Assembly (NCBI GenBank): GCA_011056555.1
Contig: DSEQ01000009.1
Span: forward strand, 16,281 to 80,280
DNA from: Candidatus Zixiibacteriota bacterium
Lineage (GTDB): Bacteria > Zixibacteria > MSB-5A5 > JAABVY01
Direction of reading: 5' to 3'
DNA length: 64,000 bases
Of this stretch, positions 7,672-63,095 are shown piece after piece. The notes under the pieces were generated by a model. That model was not told where the DNA came from. It saw only the letters and a program-made list of their open reading frames with translations, and made no database searches. The position numbers were made by a program, and so were the translations under genes. The first letter of the stretch is position 1, and each line of letters starts with the position of its first letter.

Positions 7672-8136
7672 TTATTTCAGCTTATCAATGATTTCATCAA
7701 TTCTTTCAGGGGTCAGATCCCCATATGTTTCCCTGTCGATTATCATGGCCGGGGCCCTCTCACATACCCCCAGGCACGGGATTGTCAGAAGAGTAAACTT
7801 GCCGTCTGCGGTGGTCTCGCCCAGGTCAATCCCCAGCTTTTTTTTCAGATGGTCCAGAACGGTATCATATCCCATAATCCAGCAGCTCACACTATCGCAA
7901 ATCAGGATTACATGCTCCCCCACCTCGCGCCTGAATATCAGGCTGTAGAATGTCGCCACGCTGTCGAGTGCATCCAGGGACATCTCAAGATATTCAGCCA
8001 GATCCTTGAGGCTATCGTCGGAAACCCATCTGCGATGACGCTGGATAATCTTGAGCGCCTCGATCACAACCGCCTGCCTGGTCGGGCTGTGAGAGAGCTC
8101 CTGGTCTATCTCCTTCTTTTCTTCTTCACTCAGCAT
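7672..8136 (-). CDS. nuoE: NADH-quinone oxidoreductase subunit E (2Fe-2S)
   Basis: 154-aa thioredoxin-like 2Fe-2S subunit with cysteine ligands in ILICDSVSCWIMG and IPCLGVCERAP. Confidence 0.95.
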   Translation of the reverse strand: MLSEEEKKEIDQELSHSPTRQAVVIEALKIIQRHRRWVSDDSLKDLAEYLEMSLDALDSVATFYSLIFRREVGEHVILICDSVSCWIMGYDTVLDHLKKKLGIDLGETTADGKFTLLTIPCLGVCERAPAMIIDRETYGDLTPERIDEIIDKLK

Positions 8137-8151
8137 TCATCCAATTCCTCA

Positions 8152-9912
8152 TCATCTGTCCACATCCGCCAGTACAAAATCGATACTTCCCAGGATCGAG
8201 AGCACATCCGCCACAGTCTCGCCCCTTGAAATATAGGGCACCATCTGGATATGCGGGAACGACGGCGCTCGTATTCTTGTGCGGTAAGAAATCGTATTCC
8301 CATCCGAGATCAAATAATAGCCGTTTACCCCTTTGGATGCCTCAACCGCCGCATGAGCCTCGCCCGGCGGAATAACCGGCCCCCAGCTGACGCCCAGAAA
8401 ATGCGTGATCAAAGTCTCGATATCGTGCATGGTTCTGTCTTTTCTCGGTGGAGTTGTCAGGGGATGGTCCGATTTATAATGGCCCTCGGGCATATTCTCC
8501 AGGCACTGCCGGATTATCCTCAAACTCTGGCGCATTTCCTCCACACGAACAAGCGCACGATCATAGCAATCTCCGTGGTCGGCAGTGGGAATATCAAACT
8601 CGAACTGGTCTATACCCGAGTATGGCCTCTTCTTGCGGTAGTCCCATTCGAGTCCTGTGGCACGCAGACCCGACCCGGTCACGCCCCATTCAATCGCCTC
8701 TTCGGTATTATATGCGCCGATACCGACGGTGCGGGCCTTGAAAATCCTGTTCTTCATGACCATGGTATCATACTCTTTAAGCCTCTTGGGCATATACTCC
8801 AGAAACTCTTTTAGCATTTCATCCCAGCCCTTTGGCAGGTCCGCCGCCGTACCGCCGATCCTGAACCAGCTTGGATGCATCCTTCCGCCCGTGACCGCCT
8901 CCACAATCTGGAAAATCCGTTCACGGTCATTGAACATGAAAAAGACCGGGGAAAGAGCCCCCAGATCCTGGGCAAAGGTTCCATACCACACAAGATGACT
9001 GGCAATACGAAACAGCTCGGTCATCATGATCCGGATCACCTGAGCTCGCTGCGGGACCTCGATTCCGGCCAGCTTCTCGACCGCCATCACATAGGGGAAA
9101 TTGTTCATCACTCCCCCCAGATAGTCAATGCGGTCGGTGTATGGTATATATGTATGCCATGACTGCCGCTCGCCCATCTTCTCCGCTCCGCGGTGATGAA
9201 ACCCGATGTCGGGAACGATATCGACAATCATCTCGCCATCGATCTGCAGTATCAGACGCAGGACGCCGTGGGTGCCCGGATGCTGGGGGCCGAGATTGAG
9301 GAACATAAATTCCGTGTCCTCGCTCTCGCGTTTCATACCCCATTCCTCGGGCTTGAACCGCATCGCCTCCTGTTCACGGTCCTGTTTTTCCTGAGGAAGC
9401 GAAAACTGGCCCATCTCTGTGGCTCGCGCGGGGTGCTCCTTGCGAAGGGGATGGCCCTCCCATGTCCAGGGCATCAGGATTCGGCGCAGGTTCGGATGAC
9501 CGTCGAATTTAATGCCGAACATATCATAAACTTCACGCTCGTACCAGTTGGCGTTGTGCCACATATGAGTAATCGTATCGATTGAAGGATATTTGCCGTC
9601 AAGGGCGGTTTTTATTCTGATATCTTCGTTGCGGTCAACCGAGAGCAGGTGGTACACTACCGTAAAAGCGCCATCCGGCTGGCCGTTGCGATTCTGGCGG
9701 GAACGCTCATCGATCGCAGTAAGATCATAAAGCATCCTGTAAGGCCTTTCCGCCTCATCTTTGAGATACTGCAGGACACTACGGACATCAGCCTTATCTA
9801 CCCAGAACGTGGGAATTCCGTCTTTGCTCCGCTGGGGGGCAATTCTGGCATCCCGAAAACGTTCAATCAGATCCAGCTCAATCTGCGGCTCTTTCATATT
9901 CTTTTGATTCAT
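8152..9912 (-). CDS. nuoCD: Fused NADH-quinone oxidoreductase subunit C/D
   Basis: The 586-aa product has a NuoC-like N-terminal half ([26 protein letters not shown]). Its C-terminal half is NuoD-like ([16 protein letters not shown]...RIGGTA...[13 protein letters not shown]...FVLADVDR). Confidence 0.95.
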
Positions 9913-43758: not shown

Positions 43759-44596
43759 GCCCTCGGCTCTGTACGTAAGATATTAACTAAGCTATATCAG
43801 ATCTATAATCAAGCAATTTATCCGGGTCTGCCGACAATGTCACGGCATATTTTGCCCTTCACCCCTTTTGGAATCAGCATAAGTACTGCCCTCGTGTGGT
43901 TTTCCACTTCAACGCCTAAAGTGGTAAAACACGGATCAAGAGTTTTGTCGATGATGTCTGTCGGTCTCCCGCCGCCGGGACCCGATATTTCCACAAATAT
44001 ACAGTCTTTGTTCAAAAATGTCCTAATTTAAATTTTACCAATTCCACTGTGTAATGCAGACAGGGATGCTTTTTGATTTCTTCATTTGATATTAAATCCC
44101 GCAATTTTCTATGGCCCGATTTGGAATAATATAAAGCATTACTCAGTAACATCTCAATCTCTTTTTTCAAGGGCAGGCAATATTTTAGACTGGATGCGCC
44201 CTCAGAAATCGCGCTGATGGATTCCTTTTAATGAATTCGAAATGAAGTTGAGACCCCAGACAGAAGATACATAACTGCAAGTCTCCCAACAGAATTATCT
44301 ACAGTACCGGAAACGTATTTTTCGGAAAATAATATGGAGACCCTCTGAATCGGGGCGGGATATATGTTCGGATGATATTCGGATTCTATTCCTGCTTCGC
44401 TCGTAAAGATGTTTCAGGTGGGATCAGGGTTTGCTTTTAATGAAATTCTAATGATGGCCTAACATCATTTGGACAAAACAGACGTTATTACTTCAAGTTT
44501 TGACAGATAACATGGTCAAGGGAATAATGGTTTTGATAATTTTTAAAGCTGATATCTGGTAGGCATTCATATCAGATTTATTTTTATGGAGGTTGT

Positions 44597-55720: not shown

Positions 55721-56920
55721 TCAGCTTGCGGATGATACCGATTTTTTCATCTGACGGGCGCGCTGGGCGATCTCATCAACAGCATTTATAGCCGCATCGA
55801 TATCCTCTCCGGTATTGAACGGCCCGATTGCAAACCGTACCCCGCCGTGAATCTTGTCGATTCCGAGCTGCTTATGAACCAACGGAGCGCAGTGTAATCC
55901 GGTGCGGGTGGCGATGCTGAAATCCACATCCAGCATGATACCCACATTTCCTGCCTCCATATCCTTGACATTGATTGTCATGGTCGCCAGATGATTTTCC
56001 ATACTGCCACAGCAGTAAACCTCGACGCCGTCGATCTTCTTGAAACCGTCGGCCAGCTTTTGAGCAAGTTTCATCTCATGCTTATAGATAACATCAACGC
56101 CGCCCTGCTCCCTGATCCAGTCCTGTCCGGCCCAGAGCGAGGCGATCCCAACCATATTGGGGGTGCCGAATTCCATCCGGTAGGGATACTCCTCCAGATG
56201 GTAGGGATAAGCCGAGCGTACCCCGGTGCCGCCGCTTCTGGTCTGCTTGATTTCGACATGCTTGCGCACACATAGACCGCCAATTCCGGTCGAGCCCATC
56301 ATTCCTTTATGGCCGGTAAAGGCCAGCACATCGACATTCATCTCTTTCATGTTAATAGGCACCACTCCGGCGGTCTGGGAGACATCGATCGCAAAGAGCA
56401 CATCCATCTCTTTGCAGACGGCGCCTATTTCGGCCACCGGCTGGATTGTACCGATGACATTGGAGCCGTGATTTACTATAACGAGCTTTGTATTTGGCTT
56501 AATGGCTGCTTTGATGGCATCCGGTTCAACAAAACCGTCTTTGTTAAAGGGCACATAAGTAGCTTCCACACCATGATCGCGCACCAGATGATTGATCGGT
56601 CGGATGACCGAGTTGTGTTCCAGGTTGGTGGTAACTACATGATCCCCCTCGGACAATAGCCCCTGGATGATCAGGTTCAGGGCATCGGTGGCGTTATAGG
56701 AATAGCACAGCCGTTCGGGAGCGTCCTCATCTCCGCCAAAGAATTTGGTGAGCGTCTTGCGAAGATCCTCAACTATATTGCCGGCTTCTATGGCCTTATC
56801 GAAACCGCTTCGTCCCGGATTGACCCCGCATCCGCGGTAGAATTCTATCATGAAGTCGTAGACTTTATCCGGTTTGGGCCATGATGTGGCCGCGTTGTCG
56901 AGATATATCAGTTTTTCCAC
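55721..56920 (-). CDS. Class-V aminotransferase-fold PLP enzyme (cysteine desulfurase / selenocysteine lyase family)
   Basis: IYLDNAATSWPKP at the N-terminus, the PLP lysine in FTGHKGMMGSTGIGGL, and the active-site Cys in TRTGLHCAP. Confidence 0.85.
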   Translation of the reverse strand: MEKLIYLDNAATSWPKPDKVYDFMIEFYRGCGVNPGRSGFDKAIEAGNIVEDLRKTLTKFFGGDEDAPERLCYSYNATDALNLIIQGLLSEGDHVVTTNLEHNSVIRPINHLVRDHGVEATYVPFNKDGFVEPDAIKAAIKPNTKLVIVNHGSNVIGTIQPVAEIGAVCKEMDVLFAIDVSQTAGVVPINMKEMNVDVLAFTGHKGMMGSTGIGGLCVRKHVEIKQTRSGGTGVRSAYPYHLEEYPYRMEFGTPNMVGIASLWAGQDWIREQGGVDVIYKHEMKLAQKLADGFKKIDGVEVYCCGSMENHLATMTINVKDMEAGNVGIMLDVDFSIATRTGLHCAPLVHKQLGIDKIHGGVRFAIGPFNTGEDIDAAINAVDEIAQRARQMKKSVSSAS

Positions 56921-57407
56921 ATGTGACTCCTGTATAAAATAAAATATTTTTGCAAAATTAAGGGAAGATTCAGTTTTGGCAGGCTTCTACAGCCCATCGA
57001 AGATTTCCTCTCTTCCGCGTCCCCGGGAGAGCGCGAAAATAGCCCGTCTTTAAGGTCATAAGATAATCATACGCACCATATCTGTCAACCTGTTGTGAAA
57101 TTTACATCAGAATTTGTGGGGAGTATATATTTAATCAGGAGTGTTTTGGTCTTTTGTAGTAAATAAGAAATTTTGTAGCCCACATTTGGGATTTATGGGG
57201 TGCCCCATCCCCGCAAGGGGTGGGTTTGCACGTGCCGGCAGAAACCCTTTCCTGCCGGAGATATACATGATTAGATGGCTTAGCAGGTCAAACCCTTCCG
57301 GGACTTGAACAGCCGTCGGGTATTGGTTGCCGACGCGACATAAGAGATTCTTCGCCCGTCAAAGGCCGGGTCCTTGACTTCGCTCTGAATGACTCTGGCA
57401 AACATAC

Positions 57408-57438
57408 AAAAAAACCCCGCCTTGACATAAAGACGGGG
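57408..57438 (-). terminator. Rho-independent terminator after the OM barrel gene
   Basis: The minus strand reads CCCCGTCTT-tatgtc-AAGGCGGGG (one G-U pair) followed by TTTTTTT. It lies 25 nt downstream of the stop at 57463. Confidence 0.6.
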
Positions 57439-57462
57439 CGAGCAAAGTGAGTTGAATTACCC

Positions 57463-58206
57463 TTAGAAATGCACAGCCACTCCCAGACGTATATTCGCTG
57501 CATCCAGGTGAAGCCCATCCTCAAAGGTGTCGAAATCGGTGTCGTAGAAACCGTAGTAGTCGTAGTACTCCAGGTCGAGAAAATACCAGCGGTTCTCAAG
57601 AATCATCGCGTATTCGGCCAGGATGCTCAAGGATCTATTTAAAAAAACCTCCATTCCAACCGAGCCCTCGACTCCAAAGCCGAGCTGTCCGCTCTCGTCA
57701 ACCCTGACATCATAAACCCAGTCGTATGGATAGTCGTAATAAATTATAGCAAGGTCCGGATCGGTTTCCCGGTAACTCAGACGCGGACCTGCACCGAAAT
57801 AAAATCTCAGACGGTCATCGATACGGGGATAAAACAAATATTGAAGTGAAATACTCCCTCCCGAGATGTCAAAAAAGTCGATATCCCTGAAAACAAACGA
57901 GTAACCGTCATGGAAGAATACCCTGTCCTCATAAAGGTTGTCATCATCCTCGAAAAACCCGATATTTAAACGCATTGCACCCTCACGCGAGACCTGCTTT
58001 GTGAGTGAAAGCATGCCGCCGCGGAAATCATCATTATCAAAACTGCGGTCCAGATGAAGCTGCAGGGACCATGTATTGAACCGCTCCATAGGCGGCTGGC
58101 CTTTCGGCACACGTCTGATGCGGGCCTCTGCCTGCGATGGAAAGAGCAGCGCGCCCAGCGCAAAGACGATCAACATAAACAGTATTGCTTTTGTCCAGTC
58201 TGACAT
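57463..58206 (-). CDS. Hypothetical outer-membrane beta-barrel protein
   Basis: Signal peptide ILFMLIVFALGALLFPSQAEA, alternating Tyr/Phe/Asp-rich strands, and a C-terminal IRLGVAVHF ending in aromatic Phe. Confidence 0.55.
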   Translation of the reverse strand: MSDWTKAILFMLIVFALGALLFPSQAEARIRRVPKGQPPMERFNTWSLQLHLDRSFDNDDFRGGMLSLTKQVSREGAMRLNIGFFEDDDNLYEDRVFFHDGYSFVFRDIDFFDISGGSISLQYLFYPRIDDRLRFYFGAGPRLSYRETDPDLAIIYYDYPYDWVYDVRVDESGQLGFGVEGSVGMEVFLNRSLSILAEYAMILENRWYFLDLEYYDYYGFYDTDFDTFEDGLHLDAANIRLGVAVHF

Positions 58207-58299
58207 TTTATCTAACCTCCGAATTTATTCTTTCATTCTGGAGAATATTAAAACAAGTGCCGTGCCAGAAATTATAACTGATTATTTTCTAATATGTTA

Positions 58300-58475
58300 G
58301 GCACGCACAATGGATTCCTGCGTATTGGCCCCCGCACAAAAATAGTGCAAGAGATTTTGGGGCATGCACAAGGATTGGCAGAACCCAGGATTTGTGCGTT
58401 GTGCACGTCCCCGTGCACAATGTCATTCTCAACGATTTGTCACGGCGCACGGGGACGTACGCCGTGCACGAATGT
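58300..58475. repeat. Dense cluster of (C)GTGCACAA / CGCACAA motifs in both orientations, with a 12-bp perfect inverted repeat
   Basis: Plus-strand copies occur at 58304, 58333, 58364, 58412 and 58463. Minus-strand copies occur at 58391-58398, 58399-58407 and 58437-58445. The inverted repeat is ACGTCCCCGTGC (58405-58416) / GCACGGGGACGT (58447-58458), separated by 30 nt. Confidence 0.6.
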
Positions 58476-58649
58476 GGGTGAAAATCATAAAAAGAAACCC
58501 ACCGCTAAAGCGGATAGGGCACCCAAGCATTAGAAAAGATACTATTGGAGCGTTTAATATATTGCTATTCAAGTAATGAGATCAATTTATATTTGCTTGC
58601 AAAAAAACGATTTGCGACTATTCTATATAATTAGATGAAAGGAGAAGCG

Positions 58650-59087
58650 ATGGATGTAATTAATCTATTTGCCAAGCTTAATTTAGAAAAAATTGACTTT
58701 GATGGCAGTATAACAGCAACAACACCGGATCAATTCATTGCGCAATTTAAGAAAGTGTGTTCATGTCAGGCATCAAAACACAACCAGTCTATTGTATATG
58801 TATGGCATACAGAGAAAGCAATATCTCGTTTAAGGGGAAAAAGTACAATTGTTTACATTGGTAAAACCGATGCTACATTTTACACAAGACATTATCGCTA
58901 TGCCGAGACGGAGGCTTCAGGTAATAACTGGAAAAGATATAGCTATATCATTAATCAATATGGGGCAATAGGATTTTGTTGTGCGAGAATTCCTTCGCCA
59001 AATACTCCTCTGGAAATAGAAAACAGGTTGCTTCAAAAATATTTCGAGGAACATCTGGAACTACCCCCCATAAACAAAAGCCTATAA
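58650..59087 (+). CDS. Small AT-rich ORF, possibly a GIY-YIG-superfamily nuclease-like protein
   Basis: 145 aa from the ATG at 58650, with AAAGGAG 5 nt upstream. IVYVW...(spacer)...IVYIGKT, a downstream Arg (YTRHYRY) and LEIENRLLQKYFEEHLELPPIN loosely match the GIY, YIG, R, E and N order. The spacer between the GIY and YIG elements is longer than canonical. Confidence 0.4.
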   Translation: MDVINLFAKLNLEKIDFDGSITATTPDQFIAQFKKVCSCQASKHNQSIVYVWHTEKAISRLRGKSTIVYIGKTDATFYTRHYRYAETEASGNNWKRYSYIINQYGAIGFCCARIPSPNTPLEIENRLLQKYFEEHLELPPINKSL

Positions 59088-59131
59088 AAAATATGCCTGC
59101 TTATCTCTGGGCACCCCAAAAATTCAAACAT

Positions 59132-59207
59132 TGGGTGGCACGCCCAAATTCATTTGGGCGTGGTCTTCTAATGTACCTGCCCAAACAAAGTTTGAGCAGG
59201 CCACCCA
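59132..59207. other. Compound hairpin element (two strong hairpins closed by an 8-bp outer stem)
   Basis: Outer arms TGGGTGGC (59132-59139) / GCCACCCA (59200-59207). Hairpin 1 is CACGCCCAAA-ttca-TTTGGGCGTG (59139-59162, perfect 10 bp). Hairpin 2 is CCTGCCCAAAC-aaa-GTTTGAGCAGG (59176-59200, one mismatch). Confidence 0.45.
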
Positions 59208-59269
59208 TTGAATTGAGATAAAAAATCACAAGCTAAAGCTTGGGACACCGGGGCGAATCTGTTCACAAG

Positions 59270-59297
59270 AAAAAAAGCATGATCACAGGGATCATGC
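59270..59297 (-). terminator. Rho-independent terminator after the GatE-like gene
   Basis: The minus strand reads GCATGATC-cctgt-GATCATGC (perfect 8 bp) followed by TTTTTTT. It lies 29 nt downstream of the stop at 59326. Confidence 0.7.
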
Positions 59298-59325
59298 CCT
59301 ACAATTAATTCAAATGGGAGTTTTA

Positions 59326-61263
59326 TTACGATGTCGCCGGATGTTTGGCTTTGACTTGCTCTTTGACCATATCCTTGAGCTTTTCCGGGGGGAACTTGCC
59401 GCGGGTTTCTGATTTGACCTGACCAATAATATACTCTATCAGCTTTTCTTCGGATTTGAATCTGTCGCCATCAAGCTCTGCGGCTTTGCTTTCTATTAGA
59501 GAGCTTACATCACTCTCAGTCATCGGTATTAAATTCAATTCATCGAAAAGCCTCTCCAGCGGAATATTCGTGCCATTTGATGAAAGATAATCGAGAGCTA
59601 CATAGACCGCTTCGTTTGGCAATTCACGTTGTCCGGTTTGCTCCAGAATGTAGGCCAGGAGATCATCGGAAATAAATATCAGGTCCCTGCCCTGGCGTTT
59701 CAGATTTTTCAGATAGCCCTCGAAAAGATATGCCAGGAAAACCGGGTCAGTGAGATTGCGCTTCAATAACCGGTCGTACATAAGTGCAAATTTTGAACGT
59801 CCCAGGGAATAGACCAGTTCATCGGACAGCCCCAGTTCCATCCAGCGTTCATCGCGGCTGTAGGCCGGGTCCGGAAGAACCGCCCTGAGCTTATCCAGAC
59901 GATCTTTGGTGATTGCCACCGGCGAGGAATCGGTGTCGGGATACATACGGTCCGGGCCGGGAAGTATCCGTTCGAAATCCGTAATGCCCTCGCCAATATG
60001 CTGACGGGTTTCATTGGGCACGCCCTCGGTCGCCTCCACAGCACGGATCTTCACTTCCGACAGCGCCATGTTGACATCAGCTTCAGTGCCCCAGGTTATA
60101 ATAATCGCATCGGTATGACGCATATGGAAGACCTTTTTAATCTCGTCGCAGATTTCATCCGGCAGTTCGGCACAACTGATATCGTCGGAATGGATGATGT
60201 TCGGATATTTATCGATGCAGGCGATTACCTTAATTCGTCCGGAGATCTCATCGGCAAAGGTCTTATTCGGCTGGGTCTTGTAATTGAGTATGCCCGCAAA
60301 GCGTTCCAGCATGATACCGCCAACCTTGCCGCCATTGTTTATGACCTCGGATATCACCGGATGCGCTATCTTCTTGAAAATCTCGGTCAGGTCCTTCTTC
60401 TCGCTGTGAATTGTACTGGGGGATATTCCGCGTTTGCGCAGTTCTGATTTTATCTCCAGAAGCGATTTTTGCCTTAAACCCTCGACCTCGGTCAGGCGCT
60501 TGATATATCCGGTTTTATCAATGCCCTTGAGCTCCACCCGAGTGCCGCCGTCGATGGAAACATTGACATCCTGACGGGTTACTCCAATCCCGCGCCGTAC
60601 CCGTCCCGATGAGCGCAGCACGCGTCCGATAACCTCATCGACTTCCATCGCCTCGGTCGGAGTTTGCATATCCGGATAGGTCACAATCTCGACCAAAGGA
60701 GTTGAAAGACGATCTGTCCTGAACCTGATCTGATGTCCAATATCGTGCACCTCGCGGCAGGCATCCTCCTCAAGAGCGACTTGAATAATCCTGATTTTGC
60801 GGTCCTTGTATGGTATCCACCCTTCCACACCGACAATGGCGGTGCGCTGGAAGCCTGTGGGGATCGAGCCATCCAGATACTGCTTTCTGGTAATATGAAG
60901 TTCATCCACAATATGGCAGTTGAAGAGCATGGAAATCTGGAGGGCGATATCGAGAGCCTCCTGGTTGATCGGAAAAGGCGGGGTATCATCCATCTCATAG
61001 GTGCAGACATTATCCCGGAAGAGCTCGTAAACCACCTCTTTTTTGGTCTTGAATTCCATCAAGGCGGTGCCGTCATACTCTCCCAGTTCGGAAAGTGTGG
61101 GGCGCATATGTCTTACGATTAAACCGTCGGGAGGACCGTCAACATAACCGACCGGGCAGCGGCAGAACAGCTTTTTGGCGGTATCGAGCTGTTGATGAAC
61201 CTCCAGCCCACACTTGAAGCCAAGCTCTTTGAATCTGCTGTCGTCTAAATTATCCCAGTTCAT
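59326..61263 (-). CDS. gatE: GatE-like protein (archaeal-type Glu-tRNA(Gln) amidotransferase subunit E architecture)
   Basis: 645 aa. GatB/E cradle motifs are GLEVHQQLDTAKKLFCRCP, LEEDACRE and RQDVNVSIDGGTRVELKG. A long insertion domain follows the cradle; GatB lacks one. Then come GVPNETRQ...LPGPDRMYPDTD and a YqeY-like tail (IIGQVKSETRGKFPPEKLKDMV). Confidence 0.8.
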   Translation of the reverse strand: MNWDNLDDSRFKELGFKCGLEVHQQLDTAKKLFCRCPVGYVDGPPDGLIVRHMRPTLSELGEYDGTALMEFKTKKEVVYELFRDNVCTYEMDDTPPFPINQEALDIALQISMLFNCHIVDELHITRKQYLDGSIPTGFQRTAIVGVEGWIPYKDRKIRIIQVALEEDACREVHDIGHQIRFRTDRLSTPLVEIVTYPDMQTPTEAMEVDEVIGRVLRSSGRVRRGIGVTRQDVNVSIDGGTRVELKGIDKTGYIKRLTEVEGLRQKSLLEIKSELRKRGISPSTIHSEKKDLTEIFKKIAHPVISEVINNGGKVGGIMLERFAGILNYKTQPNKTFADEISGRIKVIACIDKYPNIIHSDDISCAELPDEICDEIKKVFHMRHTDAIIITWGTEADVNMALSEVKIRAVEATEGVPNETRQHIGEGITDFERILPGPDRMYPDTDSSPVAITKDRLDKLRAVLPDPAYSRDERWMELGLSDELVYSLGRSKFALMYDRLLKRNLTDPVFLAYLFEGYLKNLKRQGRDLIFISDDLLAYILEQTGQRELPNEAVYVALDYLSSNGTNIPLERLFDELNLIPMTESDVSSLIESKAAELDGDRFKSEEKLIEYIIGQVKSETRGKFPPEKLKDMVKEQVKAKHPATS

Positions 61264-61382
61264 AACTTGTGAAATATATCACTTTAATCTCTCAATATAC
61301 CAAATCTACAGGCCTTGGCAACCGATTTCGTGTTTTTTTTTGATGTTTGACAACACGACCGAAAATGTTATCTTTTGCCCTT

Positions 61383-63095
61383 ATGAAAAGGAAGTTCCGT
61401 ATAGCGCTGGCCCAGATCAACTCCACGGTGGGAGCGCTGGATCAAAACCTGGATAAAATCATTTCTTACGCCAGAAGGGCCGAGGAGCATGGCTGCGATA
61501 TAGTGGCCTATCCGGAGCTGGCCCTGACCGGCTATCCCCCTGAGGACCTGCTCCTGAAGAAGGCCTTCAATCTTGATGTTTCCAGGACTCTTAAGAAGCT
61601 GATTAAGGAAAAGATAAGGCCGATCATGGTGTTCGGTTATCCTGATTTCGACGGCGGGAAGTATAATTCTGCAGCGGTAATCTATAATAATAAGCTGGTC
61701 GCCTCGGTCAATAAATTCATGCTGCCCAATTACGGCGTCTTTGATGAAAAGCGCTATTTCACCCCCGGAAACGGAACATATATATTCGATCTCGGCTTCA
61801 TGCGTTTCGGTGTAAATATCTGTGAGGATATCTGGGTCACTCCCGGCACCACGGAGATTCTGACCTTGCATGGCGCCAATCTGGTTATCAATATCTCCGC
61901 CTCTCCCTACACTATTCGCAAGGAAAAATACCGCGAAACCATGATACAGCGGATAGTAAAGCGATGTCATATGTTTCTGGCCTTCTGCAATATGGTTGGC
62001 GGTCAGGATGAACTGGTTTTTGACGGCTATTCGATGATATTCAATCCCGAAGGGGAGATGCTGGCCTCTGCGAAGACATTCGAGGAGGATATGATCTTCG
62101 CCGAAATCGACCCTCTGGAGTCCGAGGCCAAACGGTTCACGATTACGGTTCCCCGGCAGATACCTCCGGTGGAAATTAAAAGACTGGGCGATTTCAAAAA
62201 CCGCAAAAGAACTAAAGCAATCAAATCAGTTATAAATCCCCCACCGTCCCGGGAGGAGGAAATATACAAGGCTCTGATTCTGGGAACAACTGATTATATC
62301 CAGAAGAATGGTTTTTCCGAAGTCGTTGTAGGGCTTTCCGGCGGGATAGATTCGGCCGTGACCGCTGTCCTGGCCTACGACTGCGTAGGACCGGAGCGAA
62401 TGCACTTAGTCTTTATGCCCTCGGAGTATACTCAGGATCAATCGACCAAAGACGCTAAAAAGCTGGCCCAGAATTTGGGAATACCTCTCCAGACATTTCC
62501 GATTGACAGCACATTTCAATGCTACAAGGAGATGCTCAAGGGGAGTTTCAAGGGTCTTAAGGAGGATATTACCGAGGAAAACCTTCAGGCGCGAATCCGC
62601 GGCAATATCCTGATGGCGCTTTCGAATAAATTCAAATGGCTGGTGCTTACGACCGGAAACAAATCCGAGGTTTCAGTCGGATACTCCACACTGTATGGCG
62701 ACACTGCCGGCGGTTTTGCAGTCATAAAGGATTTATATAAAACCGAGGTTTTCAAGCTGGCGCGCTACTATAATCGTAAGGAGAAGCGAACGGTGATACC
62801 TCGTTCGGTAATAGAGAAGCCGCCCTCGGCAGAACTGCGCCACAACCAGAAAGACACCGACAGCCTTCCTCCCTATGAAGTGCTCGATCCGATTCTGAAA
62901 CTATACATAGAGCAGGACAGGGGCCAAAAGGAGATCATAGATCGCGGGTATGACGAGGAACTTGTAAACCGTATCATAAGGATGGTTGATCTGGCAGAAT
63001 ACAAACGCCGCCAGTCCCCGCCCGGCGTCAAGATTACCCCCAAGGCCTTTGGCCGCGATCGCAGAATGCCTATCACACAGCGGTATTTCAGATAA
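61383..63095 (+). CDS. nadE: Glutamine-dependent NAD+ synthetase (CN-hydrolase glutaminase domain plus NAD synthetase domain)
   Basis: The N-terminal nitrilase-like domain has RIALAQIN, YPELALTGY and NICEDIW with the catalytic Cys. The C-terminal domain has the PP-loop VGLSGGIDSA and ELR...QKD. I chose the start at 61383; 61347 and 61365 are possible. Confidence 0.9.
   Translation: MKRKFRIALAQINSTVGALDQNLDKIISYARRAEEHGCDIVAYPELALTGYPPEDLLLKKAFNLDVSRTLKKLIKEKIRPIMVFGYPDFDGGKYNSAAVIYNNKLVASVNKFMLPNYGVFDEKRYFTPGNGTYIFDLGFMRFGVNICEDIWVTPGTTEILTLHGANLVINISASPYTIRKEKYRETMIQRIVKRCHMFLAFCNMVGGQDELVFDGYSMIFNPEGEMLASAKTFEEDMIFAEIDPLESEAKRFTITVPRQIPPVEIKRLGDFKNRKRTKAIKSVINPPPSREEEIYKALILGTTDYIQKNGFSEVVVGLSGGIDSAVTAVLAYDCVGPERMHLVFMPSEYTQDQSTKDAKKLAQNLGIPLQTFPIDSTFQCYKEMLKGSFKGLKEDITEENLQARIRGNILMALSNKFKWLVLTTGNKSEVSVGYSTLYGDTAGGFAVIKDLYKTEVFKLARYYNRKEKRTVIPRSVIEKPPSAELRHNQKDTDSLPPYEVLDPILKLYIEQDRGQKEIIDRGYDEELVNRIIRMVDLAEYKRRQSPPGVKITPKAFGRDRRMPITQRYFR

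Follow-up and report, generated by a model that had tools for sequence, protein, structure and literature searches.

Known GIY-YIG homing enzymes carry a C-terminal DNA-binding domain for the recognition of long targets, and the chromosomal integrons of Vibrio carry cassettes encoding GIY-YIG or other small nucleases. PD-T4-3 (PDB 9u75), a 5hmC-specific restriction enzyme active against phages, is an example of a GIY-YIG nuclease encoded by a single gene. A GIY-YIG or small-nuclease cassette is exemplified by orf6 of the class 4-like integron of Aeromonas (PMC10609294). Endonuclease II of phage T4 (EndoII, DenA) is a small, tetrameric and promiscuous nicking enzyme, the activity of which is blocked by cytosine modification (PMC2764454; PMC1564403).

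The gene described here lies in a 64-kb stretch of DNA, the whole of which was analysed (the window), on an AT-rich insert located between a gene for an outer membrane protein (OMP) and a gatE-like gene, on other strands, as the sequence-only reading had placed it. Compared with integron cassettes, the insert is likewise cassette-sized, contains one ORF and occupies a variable spot, and homologues of its gene are present in attC-bounded single-ORF cassettes (the Vibrio copy having 35% identity), but no attC, array or integrase was seen at it, and it has a 123-nt leader and an 8-10-bp duplication; to our knowledge, recombination by integron integrases does not duplicate 8-10 bp of the target. 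Unlike the Seg family and I-TevI, the window protein lacks a C-terminal DNA-binding module, its family is found in diverse contexts and a target duplication is present, and we know of no homing event that creates an 8-10-bp duplication. The insert is also unlike insertion sequences, MITEs and transposons in having neither terminal inverted repeats nor a transposase, although the 8-10-bp duplication is present. EndoII has the nearest fold but only 14% sequence identity, with an hhalign probability of 15.8%, and it is the product of a phage host-shutoff gene, whereas the family described here is chromosomal or cassette-borne in bacteria. Being a single-gene GIY-YIG nuclease, the window protein is comparable to PD-T4-3, which is a defence factor and serves as a model of the way in which cells may tolerate a nuclease that lacks a partner.

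The reading that we favour, with a probability of about 0.6, is that a foreign 582-bp segment encoding a GIY-YIG nuclease was inserted into a hairpin element with duplication of 8-10 bp, and that the nuclease is cargo acting alone, either in defence or selfishly. The features of the locus are given in Table 1.

Table 1. Features of the insert and of the surrounding host sequence (window positions)
Feature	Position	Strand	Remarks
Left half of host element, AAACCCACC-GCTAAAGC-GGATAGGGCACCCAA	58495-58526	+	nhmmer; matches L005; 80% to 57198-57227
Left motif copy, 10 bp, GGGCACCCAA	58517-58526	+	two blastn alignments overlap on the single L005 copy, 13353-13344
Insert	58527-59108	+	582 bp; AT-rich; single gene
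Insert leader	58527-58649	+	123 nt, GC 0.293; absent from L005 (sequence, composition)
GIY-YIG nuclease gene	58650-59087	+	ATG 58650, TAA 59087; 145 aa, stand-alone
Insert trailer	59088-59108	+	21 nt after the stop; no hairpin or attC; absent from L005
Right motif copy, GGGCACCCCAA, one extra C	59109-59119	+	sequence and L005 alignment
Right half of host element	59109-59135	+	nhmmer; 78% to 57179-57205; 91% to L005
Host double-hairpin (three-way-junction) repeat-like structure	59129-59210	+	directly 3' of the insert, not part of it
Degenerate further element copy	59219-59251	+	terminator-like on the minus strand (59242-59229), downstream of the gatE-like gene
Intact paralogous element, about 49 nt	57179-57227	-	uninterrupted arrangement; absent from L015

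Regarding its affiliation, the nuclease ORF is a real gene of a wide family that is without annotation in Pfam, NCBIfam, PADLOC and PHROGs. The window protein had no match in Pfam, NCBIfam or PADLOC and only noise in PHROGs, sequence searches of the PDB gave nothing meaningful, an exact-pattern metagenome scan with CACGCCCAAATTCATTTGGGCGTG gave no match, and a word-indexed search of 5.8 billion proteins returned only the window protein itself. With phmmer, 135 matches at E<1e-3 were obtained among 1.84 billion cluster representatives, 64 at E<1e-10, giving a family of at least 135 clusters at 50% identity, the members of which are mostly 130-170 aa long, the nearest homologue being 53% identical. 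One candidate member, P0018 (2201 aa, 17 matched stretches), was rejected as a false positive consisting of a translated tandem repeat. Two proteins, P0049 (247 aa) and P0043 (204 aa), have an additional N-terminal region of 60-115 residues before the nuclease domain.

An alignment of 69 family sequences has the motifs IVYxW ... IPRLxGxSxIxYIGxT ... R ... E ... HLExPPxN, with a spacing between GIY and YIG that exceeds the classic 10-11 residues. Residues Y50, R80 and E124 are invariant in these sequences and R60, S65, Y69, I70, G71, Y131, H135, E137, P139, P140 and N142 are at least 90% conserved; all of them are kept in the window protein, which thus contains the GIY-YIG catalytic set Tyr/Tyr/Arg/Glu/Asn, including Y50, Y69, R80, E124 and N142. 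The loose GIY...YIG...R...E...N pattern remarked upon at the outset is therefore a conserved property of the family, with Y50, R80 and E124 invariant and Y69, I70, G71 and N142 among the residues conserved at 90% or above. In the comparison with Pfam, proposed in the same reading, PF01541 had no match above the gathering threshold for the window protein, but weak matches to it were detected in 13 of the 69 relatives (best E 7e-4).

Structure prediction by AlphaFold gave a pLDDT of 40 for the single sequence, and a pLDDT of 98 and a pTM of 0.91 when the family alignment was supplied. The predicted fold has the alpha/beta arrangement of GIY-YIG domains, a three-stranded sheet containing the GIY and YIG strands with helices on its flanks, and the structural nearest neighbour of the window protein is T4 EndoII (PDB 2wsh); Foldseek searches of the PDB and BFVD gave marginal GIY-YIG matches only. 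In the hhalign alignment, IVYVW.../VYIGKT...R of the window protein falls on VIYAI.../VYIGKT...R of EndoII, the probability of 15.8% applying to the GIY-YIG-R segment only. The 145-aa protein comprises the catalytic fold and an N-terminal extension, ends at the conserved Asn motif and is without a separate DNA-binding domain. On its predicted structure and motifs, the window protein is a divergent stand-alone GIY-YIG nuclease with a fold nearest to that of EndoII, an assignment made because of the family motifs, the AlphaFold model, the weak PF01541 matches and the hhalign alignment taken together.

Regarding composition, the AT-richness originally noticed in the ORF and its leader relative to the flanks is pronounced. 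The nuclease ORF has a GC content of 0.361 and a GC3 of 0.295, the leader is lower still (Table 1), and the four adjoining genes have GC contents of 0.488-0.522 and GC3 values of 0.565-0.615. Calculation of the compositional deviation, which had been recommended as a check, placed the insert as a whole (GC 0.345) below every 582-bp stretch of the 64-kb window, for which stretches taken at 10-bp steps have a mean of 0.487, a standard deviation of 0.039 and a minimum of 0.347. The nuclease ORF has a ribosome-binding site, GGAG at 58641-58644, 5 nt before its ATG. Promoter prediction gave no strong sigma-70-type site on the plus strand of the leader; the host belongs to an uncultured lineage, labelled Zixibacteria or Ignavibacteria, and may use other signals. 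The nuclease gene is the only gene of the insert, with no transposase or recombinase and no second ORF of at least 40 aa except those overlapping the gene in another frame or strand, and no inverted repeats were found at the ends of the insert.

The one further low-GC stretch of the window, 43760-44596, was considered as a second cassette and rejected, being a non-coding divergent intergenic region. Its 840 bp, with a GC content of about 0.38-0.42, are unusually long for a promoter region, and it is flanked by genes for a 923-aa membrane/HEAT-repeat-like protein and a 976-aa outer-membrane-receptor-like protein.

Every contig carrying the identical protein represents the same genome context. 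A 741-bp public contig (L004), which had appeared as a second context, is an artefact that ends in Illumina Nextera adapter sequence, with adapter stretches at 1-54 and 666-741 (AGATGTGTATAAGAGACAG / CTGTCTCTTATACACATCT). A search with the GatE-like neighbour retrieved contigs from two related MAGs, in which this protein is 90% and 89% identical. By blastn, window positions 58391-58526 align with 13476-13344 of the related contig L005 (82%) and positions 59109-59208 with 13353-13252 (91%); the flanks are contiguous in L005, with a single GGGCACCCAA where both alignments overlap, and the hairpin element is intact. L005 is the empty site because the flanks are joined there with one copy of GGGCACCCAA, which is what the sequence-only reading had predicted for a relative lacking the insert. 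The filled site differs from the empty one by the 582-bp insert and a 10-bp duplication, the right copy of which has one extra C. This comparison relies on one genome, L005, a fairly distant relative with flanks 82-91% identical.

Closer relatives, L015 and L016, were found via the OMP gene (99% protein and 94.7% DNA identity); their homology to the window stops at 58464 and resumes only within the 3' end of the gatE-like gene, at 59357, and they lack the nuclease gene. In L015, L016 and L006 a gene for a GT87-like membrane protein replaces the whole stretch, and L005 has an additional ORF of 344 aa adjoining the second copy of the element, which we take to be metallophosphoesterase-like from sequence motifs read by eye. 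The spacer between the OMP and gatE-like genes (58465-59356) thus has three alternative contents in related genomes, the GIY-YIG cassette, the 344-aa ORF and the GT87-like gene. Because the GT87-like gene is present in L015, L016 and L006 and the extra ORF in L005, this spacer is a hotspot of gain and loss with at least three alternative contents. One of its breakpoints is at 58464, and the other falls within the final 10 or so codons of the gatE-like gene.

The gatE-like gene itself (59326-61263, minus strand) encodes a 645-aa protein of the GatB/GatE family with a weak GAD-domain match in the middle of the protein. This protein has the length and layout of archaeal GatE, yet the genome encoding it is bacterial and contains TonB and OMP genes. 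MAGs labelled Ignavibacteria and Zixibacteria encode versions of it that are 89-90% identical.

The two motif copies, GGGCACCCAAG at 58517-58527 and GGGCACCCCAAA at 59109-59120, form an imperfect direct repeat around the insert. This repeat is not due to chance, because the window contains six occurrences of GGGCACCC where 1.72 would be expected, and none of 100 shuffles reached six. The repeat reported earlier is thus present, but it is better described as the core of a split hairpin element than as a free-standing motif: the duplicated motif forms the centre of a GC-rich hairpin element of about 49 nt, one half of which is held by each flank. The layout of the element is AAACCCACC-hairpin-AT(R)GGGCACCC-(A/T-rich)-TGGG, and the uninterrupted element reads AAACCCACCGCTAAAGCGGATAGGGCACCCAAAAATTCAAACATTGGG. 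Its hairpin is CCCC-TTGC-GGGG in the intact copy and CCGC-TAAA-GCGG at the split site, a compensated change.

Read on the minus strand, the left half has the form of a terminator-like hairpin with a T run behind it (58515-58497), and in this orientation the hairpin elements resemble intrinsic terminators downstream of the gatE-like gene. The degenerate further copy has its L005 counterpart at 13161-13137 (nhmmer). The double-hairpin structure beside the insert contains the inverted repeats I4 and I10 and has a folding energy of -24.6 kcal/mol (z -5.4); for its counterpart in L005, z is -5.6. No known RNA family was detected by Rfam in 56900-59400 or at the L005 site. The idea that the hairpin element is a dispersed genome-wide repeat was unsupported, nhmmer matches in the 64 kb being confined to the surroundings of the OMP gene. 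In the region 57158-57247, L015 has about 40 nt of unrelated sequence in place of about 90 nt including the intact element, and therefore the small hairpin element also varies between strains.

In other genomes, the family behaves generally as a one-gene mobile unit, including attC-flanked integron cassettes. A tblastn search of plasmid records gave one match, in Vibrio parahaemolyticus pVPTW011 (L014; 35% identity, E 2e-14), where the homologue (WP_025787263.1) is located between two attC repeats. The co-oriented array around it contains 23 attC-like copies within 16 kb, as well as genes for GNAT acetyltransferases and DUF3265 proteins; this locus is a classic integron cassette array. A metagenome scan revealed 15 further family loci, among them the marine contigs L026 and L029, with Vibrio-type attC on both sides of the gene, and L027, with one attC upstream. 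The suspicion of a small inserted cassette is matched by these homologues, which are single-gene integron cassettes flanked by attC in the V. parahaemolyticus plasmid record and in marine contigs, and the search of metagenomes for other contexts, suggested at the same time, found the family gene in integron arrays, in hairpin-separated arrays and in islands.

The hairpin-separated arrays comprise three loci. In L019 (1727-4843), four small co-oriented ORFs, of which the family gene is the last, lie between mnmE and a gene taken to be mnmG from its translated N-terminus; the units are spaced by a 65-nt REPIN-like double hairpin (GTAG...CTAC) present in three full copies and a half copy abutting mnmG, and the region looks like a cassette array without canonical attC. 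In L022, the family gene likewise follows mnmE and is preceded by a small-ORF pair, with hairpin repeats between the units; judging from the translated sequences, we take the pair to resemble a DUF4258/DUF2283 toxin-antitoxin pair. In L024, the family gene is part of a run of eleven co-oriented small genes, encoding an ABC transporter, an FMN reductase, methyltransferases, a SnoaL-like protein and others, and these are spaced by TCAGGAGCC...GCTCCTGA hairpins. L022 and L024 have in common a 52-nt hairpin element, 88.7% identical, about 50 nt upstream of the start of the family gene, the genes being 79% identical. The hairpin together with a CTATTCATTTGTCGGGTGCGCAG motif is found at 5895-5960 of L022 and 5898-5950 of L024, and similar hairpins are present between most genes of the L024 array.

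The island neighbours of other members include Mrr_cat, HNH, a DnaB_C/WYL island, a cysteine desulfurase with DUF4007, a DDE transposase and a SIR2 fragment. Two loci, L007 and L012, have 82% DNA identity confined to the ORF, and the GC content of the family gene is below that of its own locus in all five loci of one set and in 12 of the 15 of another. No recurring neighbour gene or constant partner was found across the loci examined, and no family member was detected by tblastn in 50,697 phage records or in the IMG/VR contigs. Directly downstream of the Halobacteriovoraceae homologue, L007 5488-5684 repeats about 200 bp from the 3' ends of a glyoxalase and a methyltransferase gene; these repeated ends match 8052-8530, 2.5 kb further on, and bracket the segment with Mrr_cat and HNH, an arrangement suggestive of an integration that duplicated its target.

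Thus, the deviant GC content, the empty site in L005 and the cassette homologues support the initial proposal of a horizontally acquired single-gene cassette. According to the favoured reading, the variable spacer between the OMP and gatE-like genes contained a small GC-rich hairpin element, the middle of which would have been entered by a foreign 582-bp segment with duplication of 8-10 bp, GGGCACCC(C)AA. The segment would have brought one nuclease gene and a leader providing the ribosome-binding site. Since the insert encodes no recombinase, the segment may have been placed by a trans-acting recombination machinery or by illegitimate recombination at the hairpin, and this is the explanation of the insertion that remains by default. 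Transposition is disfavoured because terminal repeats and a transposase are lacking.

A free-standing homing endonuclease gene, the enzyme cutting the uninterrupted hairpin element and break repair copying the gene in, so that it drives its own spread, would agree with the precise presence/absence polymorphism, with a gene that interrupts a defined sequence and has its own ribosome-binding site and low GC, and with the existence of GIY-YIG enzymes among the free-standing homing endonucleases of T4, of the Seg type (PMC1564403). This is nevertheless unlikely because the protein, with 145 aa accounting for the catalytic fold and the N-terminal extension, has no C-terminal DNA-binding domain, its homologues are found in many unrelated contexts and not at one conserved target, and an 8-10-bp duplication is not expected; moreover, an intact element survives in the same genome at 57179-57227. 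Less probable again is that a former integron cassette was put by an integron integrase at a secondary non-attC site and then fixed. Family members are indeed attC cassettes in Vibrio and marine contigs, and the insert is a single ORF of cassette size (582 bp), but this capture is disfavoured because there is no attC and no G|TT junction: no attC-like structure is present at the 3' end of the insert, in the 21 nt after the stop, no G|TT crossover motif was found at either insert junction, no RYYYAAC...GTTRRRY pair was seen by eye, and no attC was detected in 56001-61500 with a home-made detector that is about 45% sensitive, recovering 10 of 23 Vibrio control sites. The locus, with the OMP and gatE-like genes as neighbours, likewise has no attI, intI or array at the insert, integrase recombination would not duplicate 10 bp, and the attC-flanked homologues have short leaders, in contrast to the 123 nt found here.

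The empty site can also be read in the opposite direction, with the gene ancestral and L005 having lost it by recombination between short direct repeats. The 10-bp direct repeat would be a plausible substrate for slippage, and the empty site is known from a single genome that is not a close relative. Insertion is much more likely than deletion in L005, because the composition is extreme, the most deviant in the 64 kb, and because each flank is one half of an element found whole both in L005 and at 57179-57227, the paralogue, so that an insertion explains the repeat most simply. In addition, L015 and L016, which are closer relatives, are without the gene, and the family is patchy, with a nearest homologue only 53% identical, which leaves the deletion a very small chance. 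An equally slim one is given to the nuclease as the toxin of an addiction (toxin-antitoxin-like) module, with an RNA or a tiny peptide within the insert as the antidote. Nuclease toxins are frequent cargo in integron arrays, the L022 homologue adjoins the pair that, by reading of its translations, resembles DUF4258/DUF2283, and the leader of the insert is long; however, the insert has no second ORF of at least 40 aa other than overlapping ones, a conserved partner is missing from every context examined, homologues occur as single-ORF cassettes between attC sites, and no known RNA family matches.

Regarding function, the inserted cassette most likely encodes a nuclease that stands alone and is either of the defence type or selfish. 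The protein would work alone as a DNA nickase or endonuclease of modest sequence specificity, and by analogy with EndoII it is probably oligomeric. It would be kept as cassette cargo either by harming incoming DNA, in a defence-type role that is possibly dependent on base modification, or by persisting selfishly; the former is modelled on the single-gene enzyme PD-T4-3 and on the modification-sensitive EndoII. No methyltransferase is located next to the nuclease gene, which has no PADLOC match, and no explanation for self-protection was seen in the sequence; a promiscuous nuclease without an immunity partner should be toxic. Being without a linked partner, the gene is a compact one-gene candidate for a nuclease that is selfish or serves in defence.

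The very small bacterial GIY-YIG nucleases described here form a widespread family, which is without annotation in the profile libraries tried and has T4 EndoII as its nearest solved relative. The family itself is new; the GIY-YIG superfamily and carriage in integron cassettes in some hosts were known. Its gene travels as a one-gene unit, an integron cassette in Vibrio-like hosts and a clean 582-bp insertion here. Unusual are its closeness to a phage host-shutoff nuclease and its insertion into a hairpin repeat without recognisable recombination signals.

The insertion into a hairpin repeat and the mnmE-adjacent hairpin arrays of other uncultured bacteria hint that such repeats are favoured landing sites for small genes. 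A far-reaching extension, to which we assign a low probability, is a hairpin-based cassette mobility without canonical attC, in which short GC-rich REP/REPIN-like elements would be the sites of recombination or insertion, small genes would accumulate between them and the nuclease would perhaps insert itself; candidate examples are the window site and the suggestive arrays of L019 (mnmE-mnmG), L022 and L024. If this were true, the staggered cut of an EndoII-like nuclease at the foot of the hairpin would give the 8-10-bp duplication, and the gene would be a nuclease-only self-inserting gene.

A further feature of the locus is located upstream of the OMP gene, where the region 58300-58480 is rich in GTGCAC and a motif of the (C)GTGCACAA type is directly repeated about five times. 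It contains a 36-nt imperfect inverted repeat (58390-58425 / 58438-58473). The region has no Rfam match and is kept in L005 (82%) and in L015 (about 95%); it may function as an operator array or as a structured RNA.
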